NCBI GenBank assembly: GCA_045578205.1
Contig: JAZNJU010000006.1
Coordinates: 350-64,349, forward strand
Origin: Clostridia bacterium
GTDB taxonomy: Bacteria > Bacillota > Clostridia > UMGS1810
DNA length: 64,000 bases
Reading direction: 5' to 3'
In this document: positions 12,560 through 51,601 of the stretch, piece after piece
Layout of the letters: every line of letters begins with the position of its first letter
How positions within the stretch are numbered: position 1 is the first letter of the stretch
Program-made: the position numbers and the translations under genes
The notes under the pieces: model-generated
What the model was told of the DNA's origin: nothing
Databases searched by the model: none
Seen by the model: only the letters and a program-made list of their open reading frames with translations

Positions 12560-12635
12560 GCACCATTAGCTCAGTTGGTAGAGCACCTGACTCTTAATCA
12601 GGGTGTCCCGGGTTCGAGTCCCTGATGGTGCACCA
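12560..12635 (+). tRNA. tRNA-Lys (anticodon CUU), encoded CCA
   Basis: Acceptor stem gcaccat/atggtgc. Anticodon arm cctga-CTCTTAA-tcagg, so anticodon CTT. T-arm ggttcgagtcc. Discriminator A followed by CCA. Confidence 0.9.
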
Positions 12636-12757: not shown

Positions 12758-13798
12758 TCAAAATTCAGAAAGGAATGTATTTATCTTATTCACATTCTTT
12801 TCTGTGACATCTTTTGAGAATTCTGTGTAGATATTCATTGTAGTAGATATATCAGCATGTCCCAATAATCCTTGGGCGGTTTTTGCATCGACACCTGCAC
12901 GATATAAAATTTTTGCATATGTGTGCCGGAGTTGATGTTGTGTAATATCTATGCCAAGGGTATTGACTAAATTTTTCCACTTTTTAAAGATTTGTGTCTT
13001 TGAAAGAGGAGTTTTTCCACCAAAGAGGTATTCGCCTTTCTTGGTGGCATTTTTTAGTTTTGTGATAGGTTCATGCAAAACATCTAATATTGGAATGGTC
13101 CGCATTCCGTTTTCGGTTTTAGTTTGAAATTTTACCTTTGCGGTATTACCTTCAAATTCTACAGATTTATTTACGGTAATTGTTCGGGTTTCTAAATTTA
13201 TATCTTCTTTGGTGAGTGCGAGGAGTTCTCCACGGCGAAGACCTGTGTAAAGAAGTATAAAAGCATATATATCAAAATCCACATCAAGGTTTTTGGTGAT
13301 TATGTCGATGTCGCTATCTGATGCTGCGTGACGCTTTGCTTGCTTTGCTTGCTTAGGAACACGTACTACAGATGCAGAATTTTGGACTTTAATGCCATTT
13401 AACATTGCGTAGTTTGTAATAAGCCCATAAACTATTTTAACCTTTGAAATGGAAGATTTTGAATAATTCTCCGTGAGCATATCATTAAATAATTTCTGTA
13501 TTTCGTATGGCTCTATTTCTTCTATATACCTATCGTGAAATCTTGCGAGGTGTTTATATGCTATTCTGTAAGTTTCGATGGTTTTATATGATACAGTTTT
13601 TTCTTTTTCTTCTATCATTCGCTCAAATAGTTTATTTAATTTGTGTTTCTTTTCGTGAGAAATGAATTTATATTCTGCTATTTGGTTGTCGATGTCCTTT
13701 TTTGCTTTTCTTTCTGTGTATTCGGATGAGTAAAAATATACGATTTTTCCGTCAATAGTCATTTTATGACAAAATCTTCCATCTTTTCGTTTATACAT
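12758..13798 (-). CDS. int: Tyrosine recombinase / phage integrase
   Basis: 346 aa. C-terminal catalytic region ...GLRRGELLAL...HQLRHTYAKILY...LLGHADISTTMNIYTEF (R..HxxR..Y). Confidence 0.93.
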   Translation of the reverse strand: MYKRKDGRFCHKMTIDGKIVYFYSSEYTERKAKKDIDNQIAEYKFISHEKKHKLNKLFERMIEEKEKTVSYKTIETYRIAYKHLARFHDRYIEEIEPYEIQKLFNDMLTENYSKSSISKVKIVYGLITNYAMLNGIKVQNSASVVRVPKQAKQAKRHAASDSDIDIITKNLDVDFDIYAFILLYTGLRRGELLALTKEDINLETRTITVNKSVEFEGNTAKVKFQTKTENGMRTIPILDVLHEPITKLKNATKKGEYLFGGKTPLSKTQIFKKWKNLVNTLGIDITQHQLRHTYAKILYRAGVDAKTAQGLLGHADISTTMNIYTEFSKDVTEKNVNKINTFLSEF

Positions 13799-22510: not shown

Positions 22511-23306
22511 GGAGTGGGAATGGTATAACGATCCGATTGTTAAAGCGGTATTTATTGAGTTGTTGCTCACTGCGAATTGGAAGCCAACAAAATGGAAGGG
22601 CATAGAGTTGGATGTGGGGGAGACCGTTGTCGGTCGTAAAGAACTTGCCGATGCAGTTGGGATTTCGGAGCAAAATGTCAGAACTGCTCTGCGGAAATTG
22701 GAGAACACAAAGACAATTGTTAAAAAATCAACCAACAAATATACCATCGTAAAGGTGCTTAATTACTGCAATTATCAAGCATTGGCAGAGGACAATCAAC
22801 CAACAACTAACCAACAACTAACCAACAATCAACCAACAACTAACCAACAACTAACCACACCTAAAGAATATAAGAATAATATAAATAAAGAATTATATAT
22901 AGAAGAAGCCGCGCGCGTGCGCGCACGCGAGGGAATAGCCAAGGTTATAAATCTCTATGAAGAGAACATAGGAGTGCCGTCTCCTATAACAAGAGATGTT
23001 CTTGCAGACTTACTTAGTTCACACAGTGCCGACCTGGTGGAACTTGCCATAACAGAGGCTGCAAAGGCAAATGCTCATAGCGTTAAATACATAGAGGCTA
23101 TATTCCGCAAATGGGATTCTTTGGGTATCAAAGATGTAAACGGTGCTATGCACGCCATTGCAGAGCATAAGAGTAATACAACCACTTCATACTCACAGAA
23201 GCAAACCAATGGAGGCAAGCGGAATTTCTTCCAGGACTACGATAACGAAATGAGTGATTTTGAAGTGGAACTTATGAAAAAGAGAGTAGGCAACGGAAAT
23301 GATTAA
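22476..23306 (+). CDS. Phage replication initiator / replisome organizer with C-terminal DnaD-like domain
   Basis: 276 aa. N-terminal WIKLYRKFREWEWY... winged-helix-like region, repeat linker, and a C-terminal region ...VKYIEAIFRKW... like the DnaD domain. Confidence 0.7.
   Translation: MEPWIKLYRKFREWEWYNDPIVKAVFIELLLTANWKPTKWKGIELDVGETVVGRKELADAVGISEQNVRTALRKLENTKTIVKKSTNKYTIVKVLNYCNYQALAEDNQPTTNQQLTNNQPTTNQQLTTPKEYKNNINKELYIEEAARVRAREGIAKVINLYEENIGVPSPITRDVLADLLSSHSADLVELAITEAAKANAHSVKYIEAIFRKWDSLGIKDVNGAMHAIAEHKSNTTTSYSQKQTNGGKRNFFQDYDNEMSDFEVELMKKRVGNGND
22793..22858. repeat. Two 33-bp tandem units containing four copies of 11-mer ccaacaactaa (iteron-like), inside the replication gene
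   Basis: Units at 22793-22825 and 22826-22858 differ at one base. Followed by an AT-rich tract (22861-22906) and a 16-bp GC palindrome cgcgtgcgcgcacgcg (22914-22929). Confidence 0.85.
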
Positions 23307-25065
23307 CATAACGACAGGACAAACAAATTTTTTGGACGAGATTATAGTCGATAATTTTGCCGGAGGTGGTGGAGCATCTACCGGAATAGAACTTGCTACT
23401 GGCAGAATAGTAGATATAGCAATCAATCATGACCCGGATGCCGTGCGAATGCACAAGACTAACCATCCTTACACAAAACATTATTGCGAAAGTGTGTGGG
23501 AGGTAAATCCTGTAGAAATATGTCAAGGCAGACCAGTAGGACTTATGTGGCTTAGCCCGGATTGCAAACATTTTTCCAGAGCCAAAGGCGGTAAGCCTGT
23601 AAGCAAGAATGTGAGAGGGCTTGCCTGGATAGCTGTGAGGTGGGCTGCAACAGTAAAGCCAAGAGTTATAATTCTTGAAAATGTGCCGGAGTTTGTTACA
23701 TGGGGACCTCTTGATAAGAAAAATCGTCCCGATGAAAAGCAGAAAGGAAGAACTTTTAATAGTTTTGTTAATGCGCTAAAAAGACACGGCTATGATGTAG
23801 ATTGGAAAGAGATACGTTGTTGTGATATAGGTGCTCCTACAATCAGAAAGCGATTTGTACTTGTGGCAAGATGTGACGGAAGGCCGATTGTGTTCCCGAA
23901 AGCGACACACGGAGAAGGCCTTAAACCGTACAGGACAGCAGCAGAGTGTATAGATTGGTCTATACCTTGTAAGTCGATATTTGAGAGAGAAAAACCTCTC
24001 GTTGAGAAAACACTCAAAAGAATTGCACGCGGACTTGATAAATTTACAATTAACTCGGACAAGCCGTTTATAGTGACTTGCAATCACGGAGGCGATGCTT
24101 TCAGAGGTCAAGATGTGGAGAACCCTTTGAACACTGTTACACAGAAATGCACAGATGGTGTTGTGGTTCCCTTCTTTGCATCAATGCACTTTGAAAACAA
24201 AGGCACTGCGGGTAATGCACCTTTGAGTACAATAACTACCGTTAATACTCACTATGCAGTAACTCCCCATATATCAAAATACTATGGTGGTGTTATAGGT
24301 GCTGATGTAAGTACACCACTACCGACGGTTACGCAGATAGACCATAACGCATTGGTTGGAGCATCACTTATTCAGTATCATTCAGAAACTTCGGACAATG
24401 AAGTGAGGGGACAGGATTTGCAAGAACCCATTATGACGATTGATGCTTCGCCAAGATATGCACTTACATCGGCACACATTGTAAAGTATTACAGTGGAGA
24501 TGATAACTATAGCAGTGTAAAGTCTCCGCTTCATACAGTTACGGTCAAAGAGAGAAACGCCCTTGTAGAGAGTCACTTGTGTGTCCTGCGCAACAATATG
24601 GATTGTAAATCTATGACAGAACCGCTTTCAACGGTTACTACATCAGCAGGACATTTTGCCAAGATAGACACAAAAATTGTTAAATATGATGGTGGACAGA
24701 ACCTATATCATTGGCCGGAGGTAAGAGAATTACTTAACAAATATTGTGATTATAATATGGCGGATGATGAGATTTTGCTTCTTGTAATTAACGGCGAAAA
24801 CTGTTTCGTTTGTGACATAGGTATGAGAATGCTTGTGCCAAGAGAATTGTATAACGCTCACGGCTTTCCACAGGATTACATAATTGATGTGGATTACAAA
24901 GGAAATGTGTATCCAAAGAACAAGCAGGTGGCAAGGTGTGGCAATTCTGTACCGCCTCCGCTTGCAGAGGCTATGGTAAGGGCAAATTTGCCGGAGTGGT
25001 GCGATGTAAAAATTGTAAATATGGCACAGTTACAAAATAAAGTAGCTTACGGAGGTATAAGATGA
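23299..25065 (+). CDS. DNA (cytosine-5) methyltransferase with an expanded, internally repetitive target-recognition region
   Basis: 588 aa. Motif I DNFAGGGGAS, motif IV SPDCKHFS, motif VI ILENVPEF, motif VIII TIRKRFVLVA, motif X CGNSVPPPLAEAM. Six P-[LI]-x-T-[VI]-[TD] modules lie between motifs VIII and X. Confidence 0.88.
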   Translation: MINITTGQTNFLDEIIVDNFAGGGGASTGIELATGRIVDIAINHDPDAVRMHKTNHPYTKHYCESVWEVNPVEICQGRPVGLMWLSPDCKHFSRAKGGKPVSKNVRGLAWIAVRWAATVKPRVIILENVPEFVTWGPLDKKNRPDEKQKGRTFNSFVNALKRHGYDVDWKEIRCCDIGAPTIRKRFVLVARCDGRPIVFPKATHGEGLKPYRTAAECIDWSIPCKSIFEREKPLVEKTLKRIARGLDKFTINSDKPFIVTCNHGGDAFRGQDVENPLNTVTQKCTDGVVVPFFASMHFENKGTAGNAPLSTITTVNTHYAVTPHISKYYGGVIGADVSTPLPTVTQIDHNALVGASLIQYHSETSDNEVRGQDLQEPIMTIDASPRYALTSAHIVKYYSGDDNYSSVKSPLHTVTVKERNALVESHLCVLRNNMDCKSMTEPLSTVTTSAGHFAKIDTKIVKYDGGQNLYHWPEVRELLNKYCDYNMADDEILLLVINGENCFVCDIGMRMLVPRELYNAHGFPQDYIIDVDYKGNVYPKNKQVARCGNSVPPPLAEAMVRANLPEWCDVKIVNMAQLQNKVAYGGIR

Positions 25066-25415
25066 CAGGAAAAACAAAAATATGTCCCTTTTGCCAAAGG
25101 GAATTTGTACCGGAGAATAGTGCAACTGTGTACTGTAGTGCGGAGTGTCGCAAAGGGATGCGACGCAAAAGAAGTATGGATGAAAGAAAAAACAGAACAC
25201 TCATCTGTAAATATTGCGGAAAATCTTTCGTTTCGGATTGGAAACGGAAATATTGCAGTGAAAAGTGTTGCAAAAAAGCAAACGGGGGGATGAAAACGGC
25301 GGATATGCCCAAATCTGTAAAAAAAGAACGTATGAGTACTCTTGCACAAATAAATGAACTTGCAAGAGCGGCAGGTATGAACTACGGGCAGTATGTTGCA
25401 CGACATAATCTGTGA
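25062..25415 (+). CDS. Zinc-ribbon protein, basic
   Basis: 117 aa. Repeated CxxC...C..C clusters (ICPFCQ..YCSAEC; ICKYCG..YCSEKC). Confidence 0.55.
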   Translation: MTGKTKICPFCQREFVPENSATVYCSAECRKGMRRKRSMDERKNRTLICKYCGKSFVSDWKRKYCSEKCCKKANGGMKTADMPKSVKKERMSTLAQINELARAAGMNYGQYVARHNL

Positions 25416-25433
25416 GTAGCAATAAAGTAAAAC

Positions 25434-25462
25434 TTGCACTTATCTTAAAGTGTAAATATAAA
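25434..25462 (+). promoter_or_regulatory. Candidate promoter for the DGR cassette
   Basis: TTGCAC (25434-25439), 17-nt spacer, TATAAA (25457-25462), about 20 nt upstream of RBS aaaggag. Confidence 0.45.
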
Positions 25463-25482
25463 AACAACGTAAAGGAGAAAAG

Positions 25483-26097
25483 ATGATGAAAAACTACATT
25501 TGCTTTAATGGCAAAAAAATCGAACTGACCTCTGAGCAGGTCGCAGATATGAAAAAGTCTCTGGGGGTATGGGAAGTAAAATTATCCGATATTTCGATTG
25601 GGGAAACATTCAAAATAGGGGAGCATGAGTTCATAGTTCTTGAACACAGGGAAGAAGGAACAGCCGTAATACGAAAAAATCTGTTGTTTAAGGAAAAAGA
25701 GTTCGGAAAGAACAACGACTACAGAAACTCTTATGTAGATGTCTTATGTAAAGATTACGGGGCACAGATAGGAGAAATAGTCGGTCCTGACAACATCATT
25801 GAACACACGGTAGATTTGACCTCCGATGATGGTTTAAAAGACTACGGCTCTATCAGAAGAGTGATGTCATTACTTACTTGCAATCAGTACCGCAAGTATG
25901 TTGAGATACTGGACAAGCACAAGATAGATGCTTGGTGGTGGCTCTCTACGGCATACAGTACACCCAAACACGACAATAGCACTTGGGTTAAGTGCGTTTC
26001 GCCTAGTGGCGGCATCAACTACGATTGCAACTACGGCGGCGGCGTTCGCCCGTTTTGTATCTTAAAATCTGATATCTTAGTATCTAAAGGAGAATGA
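25483..26097 (+). CDS. DGR target (variable) protein 1
   Basis: 204 aa. C-terminus ...WWWLSTAYS...WVKCVSPSGGINYDCNYGGGVRPF carries VR1. Paralogous to the next ORF. No signal peptide or TM seen. Confidence 0.85.
   Translation: MMKNYICFNGKKIELTSEQVADMKKSLGVWEVKLSDISIGETFKIGEHEFIVLEHREEGTAVIRKNLLFKEKEFGKNNDYRNSYVDVLCKDYGAQIGEIVGPDNIIEHTVDLTSDDGLKDYGSIRRVMSLLTCNQYRKYVEILDKHKIDAWWWLSTAYSTPKHDNSTWVKCVSPSGGINYDCNYGGGVRPFCILKSDILVSKGE
25993..26053 (+). repeat. DGR variable region VR1
   Basis: 61 nt aligning to the TR with 10 mismatches, all at TR adenines. The flanks tgcgtttcgcct and ggcgttcgcccgt are identical. Confidence 0.9.
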
Positions 26098-26630
26098 ACA
26101 TGAAAAAGACAGAATTATTCAATATCAAGGTGGGCGATACCTTTAAAATCGGCGATGTAGAGTTTATAAAATTCGGTCAGGGAGGAGACAAAGTAACGGC
26201 AGTCACAAAAGACATTGTTTTCTCTTCGGTGTTTGGAAAAAATAACAATTTTGCTGAAAGCAAAGTTTTAAGAAGACTCGAAAATGAATTTCTCCCAAAG
26301 ATTGCAGAAGAAATCGGCATGGAGAACATATGTGATATAACAACAGATTTAACTACGCTTGACGGATTAAAACCCTATGGTGAAATGACATCAAAAATCA
26401 GTTTGCCGACCTTCGATTTTTACCGCCAGAATGTAAATGTTTTTGATAAGTACAAGCCTAATACATGGTGGTGGCTTGCTACTCCCGACACGGCTCAACC
26501 TCATTATAACCCCGTATGGGTAGTTTGCGTTTCGCCTGATGGCGACATCTACAACTATTGCAACATCGACGACGGCGTTCGCCCGTTTTTACGCTTTGAA
26601 TCTTCTATCTTTGTATCTTGTGAGGAATAA
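26094..26630 (+). CDS. DGR target (variable) protein 2
   Basis: 178 aa, overlaps target 1 by ATGA. C-terminus ...WWWLATPDT...WVVCVSPDGDIYNYCNIDDGVRPF carries VR2. Confidence 0.85.
   Translation: MNMKKTELFNIKVGDTFKIGDVEFIKFGQGGDKVTAVTKDIVFSSVFGKNNNFAESKVLRRLENEFLPKIAEEIGMENICDITTDLTTLDGLKPYGEMTSKISLPTFDFYRQNVNVFDKYKPNTWWWLATPDTAQPHYNPVWVVCVSPDGDIYNYCNIDDGVRPFLRFESSIFVSCEE
26526..26586 (+). repeat. DGR variable region VR2
   Basis: 61 nt aligning to the TR with 7 mismatches, all at TR adenines. Confidence 0.9.
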
Positions 26631-26632
26631 CA

Positions 26633-27001
26633 ATGGCTGATACGGATTTAAGAGTTATTGTGAAAGCCAAAGAACTGGCAGTTCACTCTTTCAAACTTAC
26701 AACGAATAGTAACAGATATCCAAAAAAATACAGACATTCTCTGTGCGATAAAATCCAGATTAAGAGCCTTGAAATTTACGAGTCTTTATTTGAAGCCAAC
26801 AGGATAAACAACAAAACGGATAAACAGGCAAGATGTGAAATGATAACAAAGGCCATAACTTATTGTGATGAATTGATGTTTTTTATTGAACTATCTATGA
26901 ACCTGGGATTGTTAAGCGGAGGTTCTTCTGAATATTGGACAAAAATCACATCAGATGTAAAACATATGGCTCTTGCCTGGAGAAAAACAGAAAGCAAATA
27001 A
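26633..27001 (+). CDS. avd: Avd-like four-helix-bundle DGR accessory protein
   Basis: 122 aa, helical, basic. KAKELAVHSFKLTTN..RYPKKYRHSLCDKIQ... resembles the four-helix-bundle/23S-IVS (bAvd) family. Sits directly between the targets and the TR. Confidence 0.75.
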   Translation: MADTDLRVIVKAKELAVHSFKLTTNSNRYPKKYRHSLCDKIQIKSLEIYESLFEANRINNKTDKQARCEMITKAITYCDELMFFIELSMNLGLLSGGSSEYWTKITSDVKHMALAWRKTESK

Positions 27002-27031
27002 TTTTTATGGGTTGTGCGTTGTATTTTTCTT

Positions 27032-27092
27032 TGCGTTTCGCCTAATGGCAACATCAACAACAATTACAACAACGACAACGGCGTTCGCCCGT
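27032..27092 (+). repeat. DGR template repeat (TR)
   Basis: tgcgtttcgcct AAT GGC AAC ATC AAC AAC AAT TAC AAC AAC GAC AAC ggcgttcgcccgt. 19 adenines, all in the 36-nt core. Lies between avd and the RT. Confidence 0.9.
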
Positions 27093-27196
27093 ACTGGTGG
27101 ATAGTTCGACAGAGTAGGCACAAGCCGAAATCAATGCACCACATCAAAAGAACGCACAACCTTTCCGTATGGATAAACAAAAGGGAGGAGTGCTGC

Positions 27197-28240
27197 ATGA
27201 CTGATTTTGAGAAGGTAATAGATTTTGACAATATGTACAGGGCTTATAGGAAATCAAAATGCGGTAAGGGATTCAAGAAAAGTTCGGCAAAGTTTAATAT
27301 CATGGCTTTGGACGGCATTTACACCCTTATTGAGCAGTTGAAAAATAAGACCTATACAGTATCCGATTACTCAGAATTCAAGGTATATGAGCCGAAAGAG
27401 AGGATTATAAAGACTACATCCTTCAAAGATAAAGTTGTGCAGCATAGCCTATGTGACAATGTAATCCTGCCAAGGTTAGAAAAGGTTTTTATCTACGACA
27501 ACTGTGCAGGACAAAAGGGAAAAGGGACCTTATTCGGGCTTAACAGGCTCAGTGAACAGATGCAACAGTTCTATAAGAGGTATGGTCACGCTGGATATAT
27601 CCTTAAATGCGACATTTCAAAGTTTTTCTACAGCATTCCGCACGAGCAACTGAAAGATATTGTAAACTACCATTTTTCGTATGACAAAGATATCTGCTGG
27701 CTGTGTGATTTGTTTATAGACAGCACCGATGGTAAAGGAATCCCTCTGGGAAATCAGATTAACCAGGGATTTGCTCTGCTCTATTTAGACGGTATGGATA
27801 AACTCATTACAGGGGAACTGGGAATTGAATATTACGGCAGGTATATGGATGACTTCTACTTGATACATACAAGCAAAGAGTACCTCAAATATTGCCTCGA
27901 AGTAATCAGGGAATTTCTGGAAACATTAGATTTAACCCTCAATGGCAAAACTCAGATATTTCCATTCAAAAATGGTGTAAGTTATCTCGGATTTCATACA
28001 TACATAACTTTCACAGGAAAAGCCATAAGGAAACTAAAAAACCAAAATAAGCGTAATGCTCAGAGAAAATACTTTAAAATGGCCAAGAGAGTTGCAAGTG
28101 GTGAACTCTCCATAGATAAGTTTGATGCTTCCTACACGGCTTGGAAAAACCATATGTTGCACGGTAACTGCTATAGGTTAGGAGAGGCTATGGACGAGAT
28201 GATAAGGAGAATTTTAGGAGAAAGGAAAAAAGAGACATGA
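27197..28240 (+). CDS. DGR-type reverse transcriptase
   Basis: 347 aa from ATG 27197 (RBS aagggagg). RT motifs ...IPLGNQINQ... (DGR-like [LI]GxxxSQ variant) and GRYMDDFYLIH (YxDD). The ORF-track N-terminal extension (27014-27196) is just the TR read in frame. Confidence 0.88.
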   Translation: MTDFEKVIDFDNMYRAYRKSKCGKGFKKSSAKFNIMALDGIYTLIEQLKNKTYTVSDYSEFKVYEPKERIIKTTSFKDKVVQHSLCDNVILPRLEKVFIYDNCAGQKGKGTLFGLNRLSEQMQQFYKRYGHAGYILKCDISKFFYSIPHEQLKDIVNYHFSYDKDICWLCDLFIDSTDGKGIPLGNQINQGFALLYLDGMDKLITGELGIEYYGRYMDDFYLIHTSKEYLKYCLEVIREFLETLDLTLNGKTQIFPFKNGVSYLGFHTYITFTGKAIRKLKNQNKRNAQRKYFKMAKRVASGELSIDKFDASYTAWKNHMLHGNCYRLGEAMDEMIRRILGERKKET

Positions 28241-28632
28241 CAGATAACGAGATTATAAAGGCTTTGGAGTGTTGCTCAAAAGGATTTGGAAATTGCGAGG
28301 GATGTCCCTATGATGACGATAACGCTGATTGTGTAACTCTAAAAGGCGAAACGCTTATGATGAAGGATACCATTGACCTCATCTACCGCCAAAATGCAGA
28401 GATTGAGAGGTATTTACATTCTATCAAATTGCTTGAAAAGGATGTTGCACAAGCCAAATCCGAAGCATACAGGGAGTTTGCGGAGAGGTTCAAGTGGTAT
28501 GTCACAGTGGCAGAATCAAAGCCAACAACAAGGTTAAGTTATTCGTCATTAGGCATAGTTAATATGATTGACCTTGTATACAACGAACTTACACGCAACT
28601 TACACGAAACTTGCACGGAAAGCAATGAATGA
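28237..28632 (+). CDS. Hypothetical phage protein (Cys-rich N-terminus + coiled coil)
   Basis: 131 aa. IKALECCSKGFGNCEGCPY... Overlaps the RT stop by ATGA. Confidence 0.55.
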   Translation: MTDNEIIKALECCSKGFGNCEGCPYDDDNADCVTLKGETLMMKDTIDLIYRQNAEIERYLHSIKLLEKDVAQAKSEAYREFAERFKWYVTVAESKPTTRLSYSSLGIVNMIDLVYNELTRNLHETCTESNE

Positions 28633-42679: not shown

Positions 42680-44034
42680 GGTGGTATATGGCAATATCAA
42701 TAAGAGCAACAAGGGATGAACACAGTATTACAGTGTGGCTCACGGGACTTAATCCTGAATATAACTTTGATGACCGATATCTTGAGTATTTTATTTGTGA
42801 AACAGGCACGAACGCTTGGGAGTCTGACGGAACGCTGTATCAGATAAAAAGGGGGATAACTACAACTCCAAAGCACAAATTTTACAATCTTGAATCGAGC
42901 ACAGAGTATGACATCAAGATTATTATAGGATTTTTGGGAGATACAAGTCCCGATCAGGAATATACTCTGACAAAATGGACTGCTGATCCAAAACCGATAC
43001 TCCAAAAGTTTAACTGTTTTAGTGATATAAATGCCGATGATGATTGGCTTAGAGCATCTTGCCATTTTTCACTTGATAATATTTCGGAAGGCAATACAGA
43101 ATATAGTATATCTGCACGACAAAGCGGTACTGAATATTGGTATCCGAAGGAAGAAGATAACATTTACAAATATAGTGTTACGGAAAGTGGTGATAGTGCG
43201 AGAGGAACTATTATTGTAAGACTGAATTCAGTATCTGAGTCTGAAGAAAGCAGAATGTTTGATTTTCGTCTCACCGTAAAAACAGGAGCATTAGAAACAC
43301 ATTTTTTTGTGTACGATGTGGAAATAATGTATAACCCTATAGACTATTTAGAGGTGAAACAAGGTTCTCGTAATTCTGATGGAACATATTTTGTTAAAGT
43401 TTGTTGTTACTTGAAAAAAGAAGGTTTTTATTCTTTTAACATGAGTTTTATAAATAATAATACGGGGCAGGGGTTCACGCATGATAGAGAGACTGATTAT
43501 GCTATTGGAGATGCTATTCCTTTTTGGGATGATTTGCCGATTGGGAATTATACAATAACAGTAAATGTGAATGCTTATAACAGTAAGGAAGATTATGAAA
43601 ACGATATTTGGAACACTACAGCAACGGGATATAAGAATACGTATATTGATGTAGTAGGTCCTGCAGTAGACTATTTTGAGTGGGATACAGAGATAACTCC
43701 AACTAGGCTTATGGCAAATTGTATAAACAAGGAAATACATCCGGTTACTGCGACGGAGTGGAAAAGGTTCATATCAAGGATAACAGAACTCAAGGATTTT
43801 CTAATGAGGCATAACATGTCATTTATTGGATTTCCGGATTCGTTTACAAAGGTCATTCCCGGTATGAATTTTTCTCCTGCAATATATAACGAGGTTGCAT
43901 ATGCGTTAAAAATATTAAGTTATGCCGCGGGTGAAAAGTATTCAATTATGCAAATTGACGATGACACGGTATTAACTGCAAGTCTTTTTTCGAATTTACG
44001 AGATCAGTTTAATTTTTTAGTTGATAATATATAG
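42676..44034 (+). CDS. Tail-associated structural protein
   Basis: 452 aa. Overlapping start/stop with its neighbours. Confidence 0.5.
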   Translation: MRWYMAISIRATRDEHSITVWLTGLNPEYNFDDRYLEYFICETGTNAWESDGTLYQIKRGITTTPKHKFYNLESSTEYDIKIIIGFLGDTSPDQEYTLTKWTADPKPILQKFNCFSDINADDDWLRASCHFSLDNISEGNTEYSISARQSGTEYWYPKEEDNIYKYSVTESGDSARGTIIVRLNSVSESEESRMFDFRLTVKTGALETHFFVYDVEIMYNPIDYLEVKQGSRNSDGTYFVKVCCYLKKEGFYSFNMSFINNNTGQGFTHDRETDYAIGDAIPFWDDLPIGNYTITVNVNAYNSKEDYENDIWNTTATGYKNTYIDVVGPAVDYFEWDTEITPTRLMANCINKEIHPVTATEWKRFISRITELKDFLMRHNMSFIGFPDSFTKVIPGMNFSPAIYNEVAYALKILSYAAGEKYSIMQIDDDTVLTASLFSNLRDQFNFLVDNI

Positions 44035-44056
44035 TATTTTAAACGGAGGTGTTTAT

Positions 44057-47000
44057 ATGTCACACGTACATAACATTACAGATACGGGCAGTATATTTGT
44101 TATTGATGCGACCACAAAGACAATAAAAAAACCTGCTGATGTGCCAAGAGTGGTGCAGGGAGACCACAACAGTGAGATACTTAGTTTTTCACTTAATGCG
44201 GTGTTGATTGAGGGTCATAATATGGCAGAATGTGACCGTTGTGAAATTCATTTTACCAACTTCAATCCCGAAACCGAAGAAAAGACAGAGGGAGTATATA
44301 AGGTTGAAGATTTAATGGTGAGCGAAGATGGTAGCAAGGTATTATTCTCTTGGAAAATATCAGATGAAGCCACGTGGATTTGGGGGGCACTTAGTTTTTC
44401 GGTAAAGTTCTTGTGCTTTGCAGAAGACGGAACAGTTTCATATGAGTGGAATACACTTACATCGGGTGGTATTCCCATTTATCCTGGCAAGAGCAATACG
44501 AGAACCGTTTTAGAAAAATACCCCGACTTCATAGAAAAGATAAAATTAACGGCAGATAAGTGTTATGAGACAGTAAACAAGACTTTGACTTATGAAATGA
44601 TTGGTGTAGTTCCTTCGCATAACGAATGGTTTACATTCACTCTTAATGCAGATGGAACAGGATATTCTGTTAAAGCCAATTTTGATAATGAAGATACAGA
44701 GAAAACGGATATTGTTATACCCTATAAGTACAAAGGTCTACCTGTTAATACAATATCAGCAGGTGCATTTGCAGATAAGGTTGGAGTGGTAAGTGTTGTA
44801 ATTCCGAATACAGTATCGACCATCGGAAGTAAAGCATTTCAAGGATGCTCAAGTCTTCAGAATGTTATATTGCCCAAAAACATTGCGGTTCTGAATTCTT
44901 CATTGTTTCAAGGCTGTACAGGGCTTACACATATTGACTTGCCAAAAGGCATAAAGGAAATTCAATACGATGTATTCCGTGAAACTGCAATCACACATAT
45001 GGATTTACCATACGGTATTGAGTATGTGGGCGAAACGCTTTTCTTTGGTTGTACCGCACTAAAAAGTGTCAACATTCCCAATTCTGTTAAGGAAATAAGA
45101 CCCCAAGCATTTGGGAAATGTTCAAGCCTTGTGGAAATAGTCATTCCAAACAGTGTTACTTCTATGGGAATTGGAATGTTCTCGCAATGTTCAAATTTGC
45201 GGTCAATGGTTATAGGAAACGGCATAACGACACTTGGTGGGCATTTTGCCTTGTATTGTGACAAATTAGAGCGAGTTGTTATTCCGTCATCGGTGACAAG
45301 CATAGAAAGTAATGCTTTTTGGAATAGAAGTTATGTGCCCAATCCAAACGTTACTTTGTATGTAGAGCAGGGCTCATATGCTGAGGAATATGCAAAGCAG
45401 TATAAGATGAAATATGTGTATAGTGAAGTTGGCAAAGATGCTATATCAGACAAGATAGCCGAAAGTCTTGAAGACGGTGGCACTGTCAATGAGTTTCTAA
45501 AGAATAATCAACCAGACTATAATCAAAATGATGAAACTAAGATTGACTATATTAAAAATAGACCATTTTATGAATATGTAGAGGAAACTACAAACGAGAC
45601 TATAGCATGTGAATTTACTCTCGGCGATTTTGCTTACTCTAATAAAACATATTTCTTGGGGCTAAAACCCGGGAACCCATATCAAATAAATCTTAAATGC
45701 TATAAAGATGATGAACTAATGAGTACTACAGAGGCTGAGTCAAAGGCAAGTTCTGTGGTTAAAGGTTATGGCGTATCTCTTACTTTGGATACAGATGATT
45801 ATTATATTAATATAGACGATAAAAGTGCTTCAGCATATCATAACAAATTTCCAGAACAATTCAACGGCATATATTTAAGTCAATACTGGAATTGGGTAGA
45901 GCATGAAATATTTGTATATGTAGACGGCATTGACCGATGTGTTCTGACAATAACAGGTGATTTTAGTAGAGTAAAGCCAAAATATCTTCCCACAAAGTTC
46001 ATAGAAGAGGGAGAAATATGTCCTCGACATTTAGGGAATTCAAATATACAAGCGATATTGTCTGGTTTATCCAAAGGGGCTGGGAATAACTGGCTTAGTT
46101 CACTGCGTTTGAAGAAAGACAGTGTCCCCTACATACTCGATGTAGATGAAAATGGTTTATTACGCACACGGCGTGAAAATGGTGATGGTTCTACATTTGA
46201 ATATGCAACAAGAGACGATGTCAAAAAATTGGCGCCACTGTCTGACTGGAATCAAGTTGACCCAACACAACCCGACTACATCAAGGGCAGACCTTTTTAT
46301 GAATCAAAGGTTGTTTTAATTGACGTCGATATACCACCTCATGACAACATAGATGAAACCGCTCTTTATTTTGATGTTGATAAGACGCTGCTGGCTGATG
46401 GTGCTATAGTGAGTTTTGAACTATTTGACGATGATGGCACTTATGGTGCGACACGAACTCTTACAGAAAACGACGAATTTCTCCAAGGAGCCCATTGGTA
46501 TGATGAACAGGTACAAGTGTTTTTTGTCTTCGTGACCGAAACAGGAATTTGTCTGCAAACACCTCTAATGATAAAACCTTTCAAATTCAAATTTACTGTT
46601 GTGACAAGAAAACTCCTGGACGAAAAATTCATTCCCGACACCATCGCAAGAACGGCAGATGTAGAAGGGTTAGAGAGCGTAGCAAAAGGTGCTGCAAGGT
46701 CTCATGTATATAAAACATATAAAGAAATGGCAGAGGCATTTGCGACTATGACCGCTGACGATGTAAGGGTTGGTGACCACATATATATTGAGCAATTAGG
46801 TGTTCCTGACTTGTGGATAAGCAAAGTGCACGAAACGCAACTTGAGGGCTATTATTATTACAATACTGATGAATCACTCATCCTAACGTTCGACGCGAAT
46901 GGAAGCGTGCCCGTTAATACTCCTTGGTTTGAAGTTTCTATGTCGGAATCCTCTAAGTTGAACACAGAGAATTCCACGCTAAAAGTTAAAATACCAGACG

Positions 47001-47146
47001 AATTTAGTGGCAACGTAACATTGGATAGTGAGCAACATTACCCATCAATGGCTATTATGAGTTATTACATTAACAAAGCAATTGAAGAAGCAATCGGTAC
47101 AGCAAACGCAGAACTTGAAAGCATACTCGCAGGAGGTGTTGACTAA
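44057..47146 (+). CDS. Multi-module receptor-binding/tail protein with BspA-type leucine-rich repeats
   Basis: About 1029 aa from ATG 44057 (RBS ggaggtg). The N-terminus VVQGDHNSEILSFSL is tentatively BppU_N-like. LRR_5-type repeats lie at approx. 44711-45325 (IPNTVSTIGSKAFQGCSSL..., IPNSVKEIRPQAFGKCSSL...). Two D[YW]NQ.D....DYIK.RPFYE junction motifs. Confidence 0.75.
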   Translation: MSHVHNITDTGSIFVIDATTKTIKKPADVPRVVQGDHNSEILSFSLNAVLIEGHNMAECDRCEIHFTNFNPETEEKTEGVYKVEDLMVSEDGSKVLFSWKISDEATWIWGALSFSVKFLCFAEDGTVSYEWNTLTSGGIPIYPGKSNTRTVLEKYPDFIEKIKLTADKCYETVNKTLTYEMIGVVPSHNEWFTFTLNADGTGYSVKANFDNEDTEKTDIVIPYKYKGLPVNTISAGAFADKVGVVSVVIPNTVSTIGSKAFQGCSSLQNVILPKNIAVLNSSLFQGCTGLTHIDLPKGIKEIQYDVFRETAITHMDLPYGIEYVGETLFFGCTALKSVNIPNSVKEIRPQAFGKCSSLVEIVIPNSVTSMGIGMFSQCSNLRSMVIGNGITTLGGHFALYCDKLERVVIPSSVTSIESNAFWNRSYVPNPNVTLYVEQGSYAEEYAKQYKMKYVYSEVGKDAISDKIAESLEDGGTVNEFLKNNQPDYNQNDETKIDYIKNRPFYEYVEETTNETIACEFTLGDFAYSNKTYFLGLKPGNPYQINLKCYKDDELMSTTEAESKASSVVKGYGVSLTLDTDDYYINIDDKSASAYHNKFPEQFNGIYLSQYWNWVEHEIFVYVDGIDRCVLTITGDFSRVKPKYLPTKFIEEGEICPRHLGNSNIQAILSGLSKGAGNNWLSSLRLKKDSVPYILDVDENGLLRTRRENGDGSTFEYATRDDVKKLAPLSDWNQVDPTQPDYIKGRPFYESKVVLIDVDIPPHDNIDETALYFDVDKTLLADGAIVSFELFDDDGTYGATRTLTENDEFLQGAHWYDEQVQVFFVFVTETGICLQTPLMIKPFKFKFTVVTRKLLDEKFIPDTIARTADVEGLESVAKGAARSHVYKTYKEMAEAFATMTADDVRVGDHIYIEQLGVPDLWISKVHETQLEGYYYYNTDESLILTFDANGSVPVNTPWFEVSMSESSKLNTENSTLKVKIPDEFSGNVTLDSEQHYPSMAIMSYYINKAIEEAIGTANAELESILAGGVD

Positions 47147-50580: not shown

Positions 50581-50901
50581 ATGGACAAGTTTATTTGTGT
50601 AATCATTTTTCTGCTCGGATTTGTGGCATTTTTTGTGTCTGTAGTTACCGAACTTACAAAAGAGATGTCGCTCTTAAAAAGGATACCTACAATATGGCAG
50701 GTGGTGGTACTATCTGTTAATGTATGGATTTTGATATTCTTCACTGCCTGCAGTCTGGGATATTGCCAAAGAGAATGGTATTTGCTTGTGGCTTCCGTAA
50801 TGGCAGGGTTTATGAGTGCGTTTATTGCTTCGTACGGTTGGGAGAAATTATATGTAAGATTTAAAGAGTATGTAAGAGGAGCGGATTCCAATGGTAAATA
50901 A
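50581..50901 (+). CDS. Holin
   Basis: 106 aa from ATG 50581 (RBS ggaggt). Three hydrophobic helices and a charged C-terminus. Directly precedes the endolysin. Confidence 0.7.
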   Translation: MDKFICVIIFLLGFVAFFVSVVTELTKEMSLLKRIPTIWQVVVLSVNVWILIFFTACSLGYCQREWYLLVASVMAGFMSAFIASYGWEKLYVRFKEYVRGADSNGK

Positions 50902-51601
50902 ACTCATACAAATCGCCCTTGCCGAAGTTGGATATCTTGAGAAGCGAAGTGCCGCTTCTCTTGATTCCAAAATCGACAATGCAGGGAGTAAGAATTACAC
51001 CAAGTATGCAAGGGATATGTGCAAATGCCACGCAGGAATATATGTCAACGGTTATGCCTGGTGTGACACCTTTGTAGACTGGTGCATGGTACAAGCCTTT
51101 GGTGTGGACAAGGCTCTGGAACTCATACACGGTTGGAGTGCATATACGCCTACATCTGCTTCGTACTATAAGCAACATGGCGAATGGCACAGCACACCTA
51201 AAAAGGGCGACCAGATATTTTTTAAAGACAGCACCGGCACTATATGTCACACGGGCATAGTTTACGATGTAGACAGTAACTATGTTTACACTGTAGAGGG
51301 TAACACCTCAACACAAAGCGGTGTTGTGGCAAACGGCGGTGCAGTCGCAAAGAAAAAATATGCTCTAACCTATAACAGAATAGCAGGATATGGAAGACCG
51401 AAGTATCCTGTTGCAAAGGAGGAAACAAAGAAGATGATTTATAACACTGTTAACGATTGCCCGGCATGGGCGAGACCTTATGTGCAGAAAGCCGTAGACA
51501 ATGGGTACATAAAAGGAGATGGCACAGGCAGTCTTAATCTCAACGATATGAAGATATGGTGCCTTGTGGTAATGCTCCGAATGTGCGGCATAATGGAGTG
51601 A
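50891..51601 (+). CDS. Endolysin: CHAP-type amidase/peptidase + C-terminal wall-binding (SLH-like) segment
   Basis: 236 aa. ...NGYAWCDTFVDWC... (Cys), ...ICHTGIVYDV...EGNTS (His). C-terminus WARPYVQKAVDNGYIKGDGTGSLNLND. Confidence 0.8.
   Translation: MVNKLIQIALAEVGYLEKRSAASLDSKIDNAGSKNYTKYARDMCKCHAGIYVNGYAWCDTFVDWCMVQAFGVDKALELIHGWSAYTPTSASYYKQHGEWHSTPKKGDQIFFKDSTGTICHTGIVYDVDSNYVYTVEGNTSTQSGVVANGGAVAKKKYALTYNRIAGYGRPKYPVAKEETKKMIYNTVNDCPAWARPYVQKAVDNGYIKGDGTGSLNLNDMKIWCLVVMLRMCGIME

Follow-up and report, generated by a model that had tools for sequence, protein, structure and literature searches.

Does the stretch from 25,434 to 28,240 in a 64,000-nt piece of Clostridia contig JAZNJU010000006.1 (the whole piece is called the window below, and positions are counted from its first base) carry a complete and working diversity-generating retroelement (DGR), and what would the proteins that it diversifies bind? 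The initial annotation of this DNA had proposed a complete DGR with two targets. This is supported, and such of its refuting conditions as could be examined did not overturn it: the adenine-only differences between repeats, a reverse transcriptase (RT), an accessory variability determinant (Avd), DUF6273 targets and the associated RNA were all found. We regard it as very likely that the locus is the complete DGR of a temperate phage integrated beside tRNA-Lys in a Clostridia (Oscillospirales-like) genome. Judged from its sequence, the element is genuine and probably functional.

Repeats and proteins of the cassette

The template repeat (TR; 27032-27092, plus strand) consists of 61 nt with 19 adenines and reads CVSPNGNINNNYNNDNGVRP in the frame of the variable repeats (VRs). 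VR1 of target 1 (25993-26053, plus strand; residues CVSPSGGINYDCNYGGGVRP) shows 10 mismatches to it, and VR2 of target 2 (26526-26586, plus strand; residues CVSPDGDIYNYCNIDDGVRP) shows 7. When the sequence was read again, the location of the three copies, the identity of their flanks and the codon lists given in the initial annotation all proved correct. The 36-nt cores lie between a 12-nt 5' flank, TGCGTTTCGCCT, and a 13-nt 3' flank, GGCGTTCGCCCGT, which are the same in all three. The claim that every substitution falls on a TR adenine was also confirmed, with 17 of 17 differences at the 19 TR adenines and none at the remaining 42 positions (hypergeometric P of 1.0e-6 for VR1, 1.2e-4 for VR2 and 1.2e-10 jointly). 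Twelve of these are A to G and five are A to T. The TR copy is non-coding and is located between avd and the RT gene, as had been described; it differs from the two coding copies at its adenines only.

The TR contains eight AAY codons, in agreement with its reported richness in them, and every adenine occupies codon position 1 or 2, so that a stop codon cannot arise in the VRs. The theoretical repertoire was computed to be 1.6e11 peptides per VR. As claimed, homology ends at both edges of the repeat; the copies are unrelated beyond the 61 nt, except that VR2 matches two further 5' bases, from 27030. Directly 3' of the GC-rich GGCGTTCGCCCGT the TR continues with ACTGG and the VRs with TTTTG or TTTTT. 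The flank pattern was observed three times in the window, where none is expected, and no fourth copy was found within these 64 kb.

The RT (27197-28240, plus strand; 347 aa) matches RVT_1 (5e-16) and phrog_1423 (1e-104), and carries the LGNQINQ and YMDD motifs that had been noted. Its best relative of solved structure is bRT, the DGR RT of phage BPP-1 (8ub7_A; E 9.9e-33, 117 bits, 325 residues aligned), while among the other solved classes a group II maturase scored 5e-12 (49 bits) and retron-type and Cas-associated RTs about 1e-5. By similarity scores, the RT is thus nearer to DGR RTs than to group II, retron or abortive-infection (Abi) RTs, as the initial annotation would have it. In the alignment to bRT, YMDD corresponds to D215/D216, the aspartate of LKCDISKFF (motif 3) to D138, and the fingertip arginine is kept. 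The nearest deposited phages by RT are the known DGR phages nd12, nd4, FP_Brigit, Toutatis and Lelie, the best being nd12 with 51% identity.

The avd gene (26633-27001, plus strand) encodes 122 aa and matches phrog_3206, "Avd protein of DGR", at 8.4e-21. Sequence and profile searches against the PDB gave nothing meaningful for this protein, and structure comparison alone worked. Its AlphaFold2 model has four helices (pLDDT 86), and in Foldseek it superposes on 23S-IVP-type bundles (2rld, 2gsc) and on BPP-1 Avd (4dwl; 8ub7 chains B-E) with template-modelling (TM) scores of 0.72-0.81. The four-helix-bundle homology, on which the earlier proposal had been open to refutation, therefore holds.

Target gene 1 (25483-26097, plus strand) encodes 204 aa from the first ATG, and the database protein P0001 starts at 25486 (203 aa). 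Target gene 2 (26094-26630, plus strand) encodes 178 aa when called mechanically; its likely start is 26100, as in database protein P0121 (176 aa). Of the earlier description of two overlapping paralogous ORFs that end in the VRs, the paralogy stands (BLASTP 4e-43, 41% identity), but the 4-nt overlap is probably not real, because the database starts are 25486 and 26100 and the overlap relied on the mechanical ATG at 26094. In both genes the VR lies 14 codons ahead of the stop codon. Each product is a bare single DUF6273 domain, with neither a signal peptide nor an attachment domain.

DUF6273 has been described as a C-type-lectin-like DGR target domain in which the VR forms a surface hairpin (PMC10743442, PMC11792537, bioRxiv 10.1101/2024.10.15.618418). 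The match to phrog_9958 spans the whole of each target (1.5e-37 for target 1, 8e-33 for target 2), and more than 4286 homologues of target 1 and more than 2992 of target 2 were found, many with a precomputed PF19789 assignment. Since many homologues at 60-80% identity carry PF19789 and phrog_9958 matches full length, the targets are, on sequence evidence, divergent DUF6273 relatives which narrowly miss the Pfam cut-off. A search of the PDB with the sequence of target 1 gave nothing meaningful, and here too only structure comparison worked. The AlphaFold2 model of target 1 (pLDDT 90) had as its top Foldseek match a DUF6273-containing IgA peptidase of Thomasclavelia (T. ramosa) at E 3e-4, and against the viral models of BFVD it matched DUF6273 proteins at 3e-9, some of them embedded in annotated tail proteins.

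RNA around the template repeat

Relatives strongly conserve both the 30 nt that separate avd from the TR and the 104 nt (the spacer, Sp; 27093-27196, plus strand) that separate the TR from the RT gene. Long-range helices were proposed by eye together with a complementarity script, and were then tested by pair counts. The 5' strand of a putative stop duplex, GGGTTGTGCGTT (27009-27020, plus strand), pairs with the 3' strand AACGCACAACCT (27151-27162, plus strand; Sp59-70, counting 27093 as Sp1), giving a 12-bp long-range duplex that brackets the TR. Next to the TR, a template-side strand TGGTG (27095-27099, plus strand) pairs with a primer-side strand CATCA (27142-27146, plus strand), which is followed by AAAG. 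The spacer also holds, on the plus strand, the hairpins GGC/GCC (27117-27119 with 27124-27126) and UCC-GUAU-GGA (27164-27173), an A-rich run (27175-27182) and the ribosome-binding site GGGAGGAG (27183-27190).

Across 34 relatives, 10 of the 12 pairs of the stop duplex show compensatory changes and 96.8% of cells are paired; the two strands change together, for example to AGGTTATACGTT/AATGTATAACCT and to AGGATATCTGAT/ATCAGATATCCT. The template:primer duplex reads TGTATC/GATACA or TGATAA/TTATCA in other sub-clades, and AAAAG at the primer side is invariant. For four helices with 22 pairs in total (alignment A3, 34 sequences), 96.5% of cells are paired and 17 of the 22 pairs have changed on both sides. 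These values were reached by none of 500 shuffles, and slid partners were paired in 31-44% of cells. RNAalifold, when run on the spacer alone, recovered the two small hairpins only.

The cryo-EM structure of the BPP-1 ribonucleoprotein displays a template:primer duplex by the TR 3' end, an avd:Sp duplex termed "cPRT Stop", a stem-loop and unpaired adenosines (bioRxiv 10.1101/2023.10.23.563531). All of these have their likeness here: the stop-duplex strand occupies the same span, Sp59-70, and a short stem-loop and adenosines likewise follow it. Because the RNA architecture matches that of BPP-1, we infer by analogy that priming would take place near 27146, that the cDNA would start at about 27094 and that it would end just short of 27020. 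The covarying TR-bracketing and primer duplexes support the generality of the BPP-1 priming and stop architecture.

The proposed mechanism is as follows. A transcript running from the end of avd through the TR and spacer would fold so that the duplex 27009-27020/27151-27162 brackets the TR, and the short duplex 27095-27099/27142-27146 would position an adenosine of the conserved CAUCAAAAG run as primer. A complex of RT and Avd would copy the TR into cDNA from about 27094 toward the 5' duplex, with misincorporation at the 19 adenines of the template. The cDNA would then replace the homologous 61 nt in either of the tandem paralogous targets (VR1 or VR2), and as many as 11 residues in a loop or hairpin on the surface of the C-type-lectin-like DUF6273 domain would thereby be recoded. 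By analogy with what is assumed of other DUF6273 targets, the ligand would most likely be a cell-surface structure bound by a virion-associated or released protein.

The spacer also resembles the orphan motif RT-2 (RF03077; Weinberg et al. 2017, PMC5737381). With this model it scored 17.2 bits in the window (27093-27196), and the spacers of three relatives scored 23.5-26.5 bits (L001, 4904-5032; L007, 672-813; L078, 4875-4995), all under the gathering score of 40; no Rfam family reached its threshold on the spacer. The RT-2 consensus, AGUAG-hairpin-CGAAAUCA, AAAAG and hairpin-UAAA, is common to this spacer and to those of relatives, and RT-2, like the spacer, lies directly upstream of an RT gene. 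The model lacks a strand upstream of the TR, and the spacer falls outside the family by Rfam's own cut-off. The likeness suggests that RT-2 is the spacer RNA of a related DGR clade. For DGR RNA, the clade to which the present locus belongs offers a rich comparative data set.

Relatives and the history of homing

Relatives of the RT were identified by a protein-guided scan on 553 viral contigs of IMG/VR (best 85% identity) and in 418 species-representative genomes. The latter are almost all metagenome-assembled genomes named Oscillospiraceae, Acutalibacteraceae, Faecousia, Ruminococcus or Clostridia, from human and animal guts. A TR/VR scan over the loci with enough upstream DNA revealed the layout target 1, target 2, Avd, TR, RT at 42 of 74 viral and 62 of 71 genomic loci; the tandem VRs lie some 510 and 1040-1150 nt 5' of the TR, which measures 61-80 nt at these loci, about 61-70 nt being the norm in the clade. 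The rarity that the initial annotation had implied for a short TR with two tandem targets was not borne out, this being the standard layout of a very large clade. The locus is a clean and compact example (2.8 kb in total) of a cassette type very common in Oscillospirales prophages of animal guts.

The closest relatives, L081, L082 and L083, have Avd proteins 92-95% identical to that of the window, and their TRs and VRs have 21 codons, one more than here. Among 46 loci with concordant triplets, the window alone has 20 codons between the Cys and VRP. This codon deletion, a change of AAC to AAT and a change of CGT to CGC in the 3' flank are shared by all three repeats of the window. That these three changes are mirrored in targets only 41% identical to each other is as expected from transfer of sequence from TR to VR since the split from the sampled relatives. 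Such concerted changes are the best available evidence for homing into both targets in this lineage.

The first alternative is that the DGR is a relic, whose past activity produced the adenine-only differences and whose targets are no longer diversified in this lysogen. We hold this to be unlikely. In its favor, the Faecalibacterium two-VR prophages Lelie and CP11 showed no read-level variation at the time of sampling (PMC11792537), and the RT motif LGNQINQ is not of the bRT-like form (I/L)GxxxSQ. Aligned with IGSLTSQ of bRT, it keeps the glutamine of (I/L)GxxxxQ and has asparagine in place of serine. Of 161 motif matches in the RT clade, however, 160 retain the Q; the residue before it varies between N, S and A, with NQ the most frequent form (90 matches). 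Furthermore, the ORFs are all intact, the catalytic residues and RNA helices are conserved, and the lineage-specific TR changes found in both VRs place transfer later than the divergence from the nearest sampled relatives.

Several other results weigh against the reading as a complete DGR. GGCGTTCGCCCGT is identical in the TR and both VRs, no initiation of mutagenic homing (IMH) sequence distinct from an IMH* could be defined, and a hairpin or cruciform 3' of either VR was sought and not found, unlike in BPP-1. With Pfam DUF6273 (PF19789) target 1 scored 18.6 bits (E 0.0017) and target 2 scored 22.9 bits (E 8.6e-5), both under the gathering threshold of 23.5 bits and with the C-terminal third alone aligned. 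The long run of PDB C-type lectins that came next among the Foldseek matches of target 1 was weak (E 0.3-1, TMt 0.4-0.5). The matches of Avd to NCBIfam DivGenRetAVD (3e-8) and Pfam bAvd (0.0026) are both under the curated cut-offs. In single-sequence minimum free energy folding the TR region showed no greater stability than shuffled sequence (z -0.6), and the duplexes were not recovered. Clade-wide, TR/VR differences at A versus non-A positions numbered 1290:48 and 1418:31, totals which are biased upward because the TR/VR scan penalised non-A mismatches; an independent check speaks for activity in the clade, in that the VRs of eight groups of relatives with identical TRs differ at 211 TR-A and 4 non-A positions. 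Searches of IMG/VR, GTDB representative genomes and JGI metagenomes did not return the exact TR/VR flank pattern of the window. Finally, the cassette is situated in the early region of the phage, about 18 kb from the tail genes, and the same holds in relatives, which is a poor fit to a receptor-binding role.

Not all relatives keep TR and VR at equal length. A codon-length regular expression returned 14 "discordant" loci, most of which were artefacts of extra Cys residues. In L013, L117 and L124 one VR is one or two codons longer or shorter than the TR (24, 23 and 22 codons in L124), and these cases look real; they suggest that indels arise in the course of homing or later, or that some targets have become independent of the TR. 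In L081, VR1 (1586-1650) has one extra base, GACTCCGGGCG as opposed to GACAACGGCG in the TR, which would shift the frame six codons before the end of the repeat. Either an error of assembly or damage to the target may explain it.

Prophage setting and the role of the targets

Host genes occupy the first 12.5 kb of the window. The left end of the prophage is marked by tRNA-Lys(CTT) (12560-12635) adjoining a tyrosine integrase gene on the minus strand (12758-13798); a comparison of the tRNA-Lys region with the remainder of the window showed no shared att repeat of more than 12 nt. RecT/RecE-like, helicase, DnaD-like and C5-methylase genes lie at 17.8-25.1 kb. The 3' side of the DGR is occupied, in order, by small ORFs, an HNH endonuclease, terminase (32.5 kb), portal and major capsid protein genes, and the endolysin gene is located at 50891-51601. 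The tail region encodes a BspA-type leucine-rich repeat (LRR) protein of 1041 aa (44021-47146, plus strand; LRR_5 1.3e-51), plausibly a receptor-binding protein which is not targeted by the DGR. The genes directly 5' of the cassette (23299-25415, plus strand) are for a C5 cytosine DNA methylase of 588 aa and, after it, a zinc-ribbon protein of 117 aa with Ecl1/NinG-like matches. Deposited phages in INPHARED gave no match at the DNA level.

This setting raises a second alternative, which keeps the working DGR and places its products elsewhere: the small DUF6273 proteins would be early intracellular or lysis-released binders, and the molecules that they recognise would be variable ones of the host or of competitors, such as defence or exclusion factors. 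The probability we give it is again low, on a par with that of a relic. The targets are bare single-domain proteins (178-204 aa) without signal peptide or attachment domain, and the cassette, here and in relatives, is co-transcribed amid genes for lysogeny control, recombination or replication and never stands beside tail genes. The tail module has its own undiversified protein, BspA-LRR, and the cassette resembles a moron in that its flanking genes are not conserved. On the other hand, DUF6273 occurs inside annotated tail proteins and in the "tentaclin" receptor-binding proteins (PMC10743442), gene position does not fix the time of expression, virion proteins need no signal peptide, and no homology to a known intracellular or anti-defence protein was found.

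The flanking genes were counted at 162 related loci, where homologues of the methylase were found at 11, of the zinc-ribbon protein at 5 and of the downstream ORF at 2. Because the genes on either side are not conserved, the four cassette genes behave as a portable module.

The weakest alternative, that a retron, group II or Abi/defence-associated (DRT) RT lies beside a repeat derived from a duplicated paralogous gene end, is effectively refuted and has next to no probability. In its favor, the best NCBIfam match of the RT is to a group II intron RT/maturase model, with 82 bits where the cut-off is 300. Other class models also scored below their cut-offs (Drt3a, 62 against 200; retron St85, 36 against 235), PADLOC defence-RT models gave generic RT similarity with no class fitting, no intron or retron RNA appeared in the Rfam scan and no retron msr/msd or defence partner was found. 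Moreover, the score of 117 bits to bRT exceeds the 49 to group II maturase, the third repeat is non-coding and differs at adenines only, and the same arrangement recurs in hundreds of relatives.

The complete DGR thus preferred may be compared with known systems, of which BPP-1 (mtd-avd-TR-brt) is the prototype. Both share the order target, avd, TR and RT, adenine-specific TR/VR differences, a lectin-fold domain with the VR at its C-terminal end, an Avd four-helix bundle (TM 0.72-0.81), an RT homologous over its full length (E 1e-32) and the RNA features set out above. BPP-1 differs in having one target in place of two in tandem, a TR of about 134 nt and a spacer of about 140 nt (61 and 104 nt here), beta-prism and beta-sandwich attachment domains in Mtd where the present targets are bare DUF6273 proteins, and a cassette at the tail-fibre locus and not in the early region. 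A hairpin follows its VR, while here there is none and no recognisable IMH/IMH* difference, and its RT motif is IGSLTSQ as against LGNQINQ.

Closer counterparts are the DUF6273 DGR phages of gut Bacillota, namely nd4 and nd12 (PMC10743442), the Faecalibacterium phages Lelie, CP11, Roos and Pioen (PMC11792537) and Toutatisvirus (bioRxiv 10.1101/2024.10.15.618418). As here, they have DUF6273 targets with a C-terminal VR, Avd and gut Clostridia hosts; two targets are often served by a single TR, there are small single-domain "target 2" proteins, and their RTs are 37-51% identical to the present one. What sets them apart is that one of their targets is usually large (a tentaclin, or Hoc-like with Ig domains), or else that the second lies far off (about 17 kb in Toutatisvirus), whereas here both are small paralogues, directly tandem and upstream of avd. 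Two-target cassettes made up about 13% of the DGRs surveyed by Wu et al. 2018 (PMC5758913), and there, as here, the 3' boundary of mutagenesis adjoins a conserved GC-rich segment; that survey came before both DUF6273 and the large metagenomic clade reported above.

DGRs, two-target cassettes and DUF6273 targets in phages of gut Clostridia have thus already been published, and a single locus adds little to them. The features that distinguish the clade are the tandem bare single-domain targets, the compact TR and spacer and the early-region location, and these three give some, though low, probability to the targets being non-virion binders. That the DGRs of the whole clade diversify early non-structural binders, directed at host defence, superinfecting phages or gut ligands, and not tail receptor binders, is a broader claim and, in our estimate, a slightly less probable one than the corresponding claim for this locus. 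If true, it would mean a use of DGRs outside tropism switching in a very large clade of Oscillospirales prophages.

Two further ORFs were considered for the cassette and rejected. The first is a mechanical ORF with a GTG start (27014-28240, plus strand; 408 aa), an N-terminally extended RT running through the TR and spacer. Its frame is open that far in only 57 of 145 relatives, in a bimodal distribution such as spacer length modulo 3 predicts, and it therefore receives no support. The second, proposed as a fifth cassette gene, is the downstream ORF (28237-28632, plus strand), present at 2 of the 162 related loci. It encodes a Cys-rich product of 131 aa without a family match, and overlaps the RT stop codon by 4 nt (ATGA).

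A candidate regulatory stretch lies upstream of target 1 (25434-25462, plus strand), with TTGCAC at 25434-25439 and TATAAA at 25457-25462. The initial annotation had taken TTGCAC-17-TATAAA to be a candidate promoter for the cassette. The sequence is present as described, but its reading as a promoter found no support: the promoter scan did not call it, its second hexamer having no T at position 6; promoter-like sites in the region are not above chance (13 found versus 10.9 +/- 3.0 expected); and the roughly 55 nt around it are conserved only in the three closest relatives, L081-L083, being absent from more distant ones. Expression of the cassette independently of its neighbors is accordingly possible but unsupported. 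The same stretch (25416-25482) contains a palindrome, CACTT-N6-AAGTG (25437-25441 and 25448-25452), which is kept in these three relatives, with changed arms in L082 (CACTCAT/ATGAGTG) and L083 (CACTTAA/TTAAGTG); the invariant TAAATATAAAAA comes after it. This palindrome could be an operator or an RNA hairpin.

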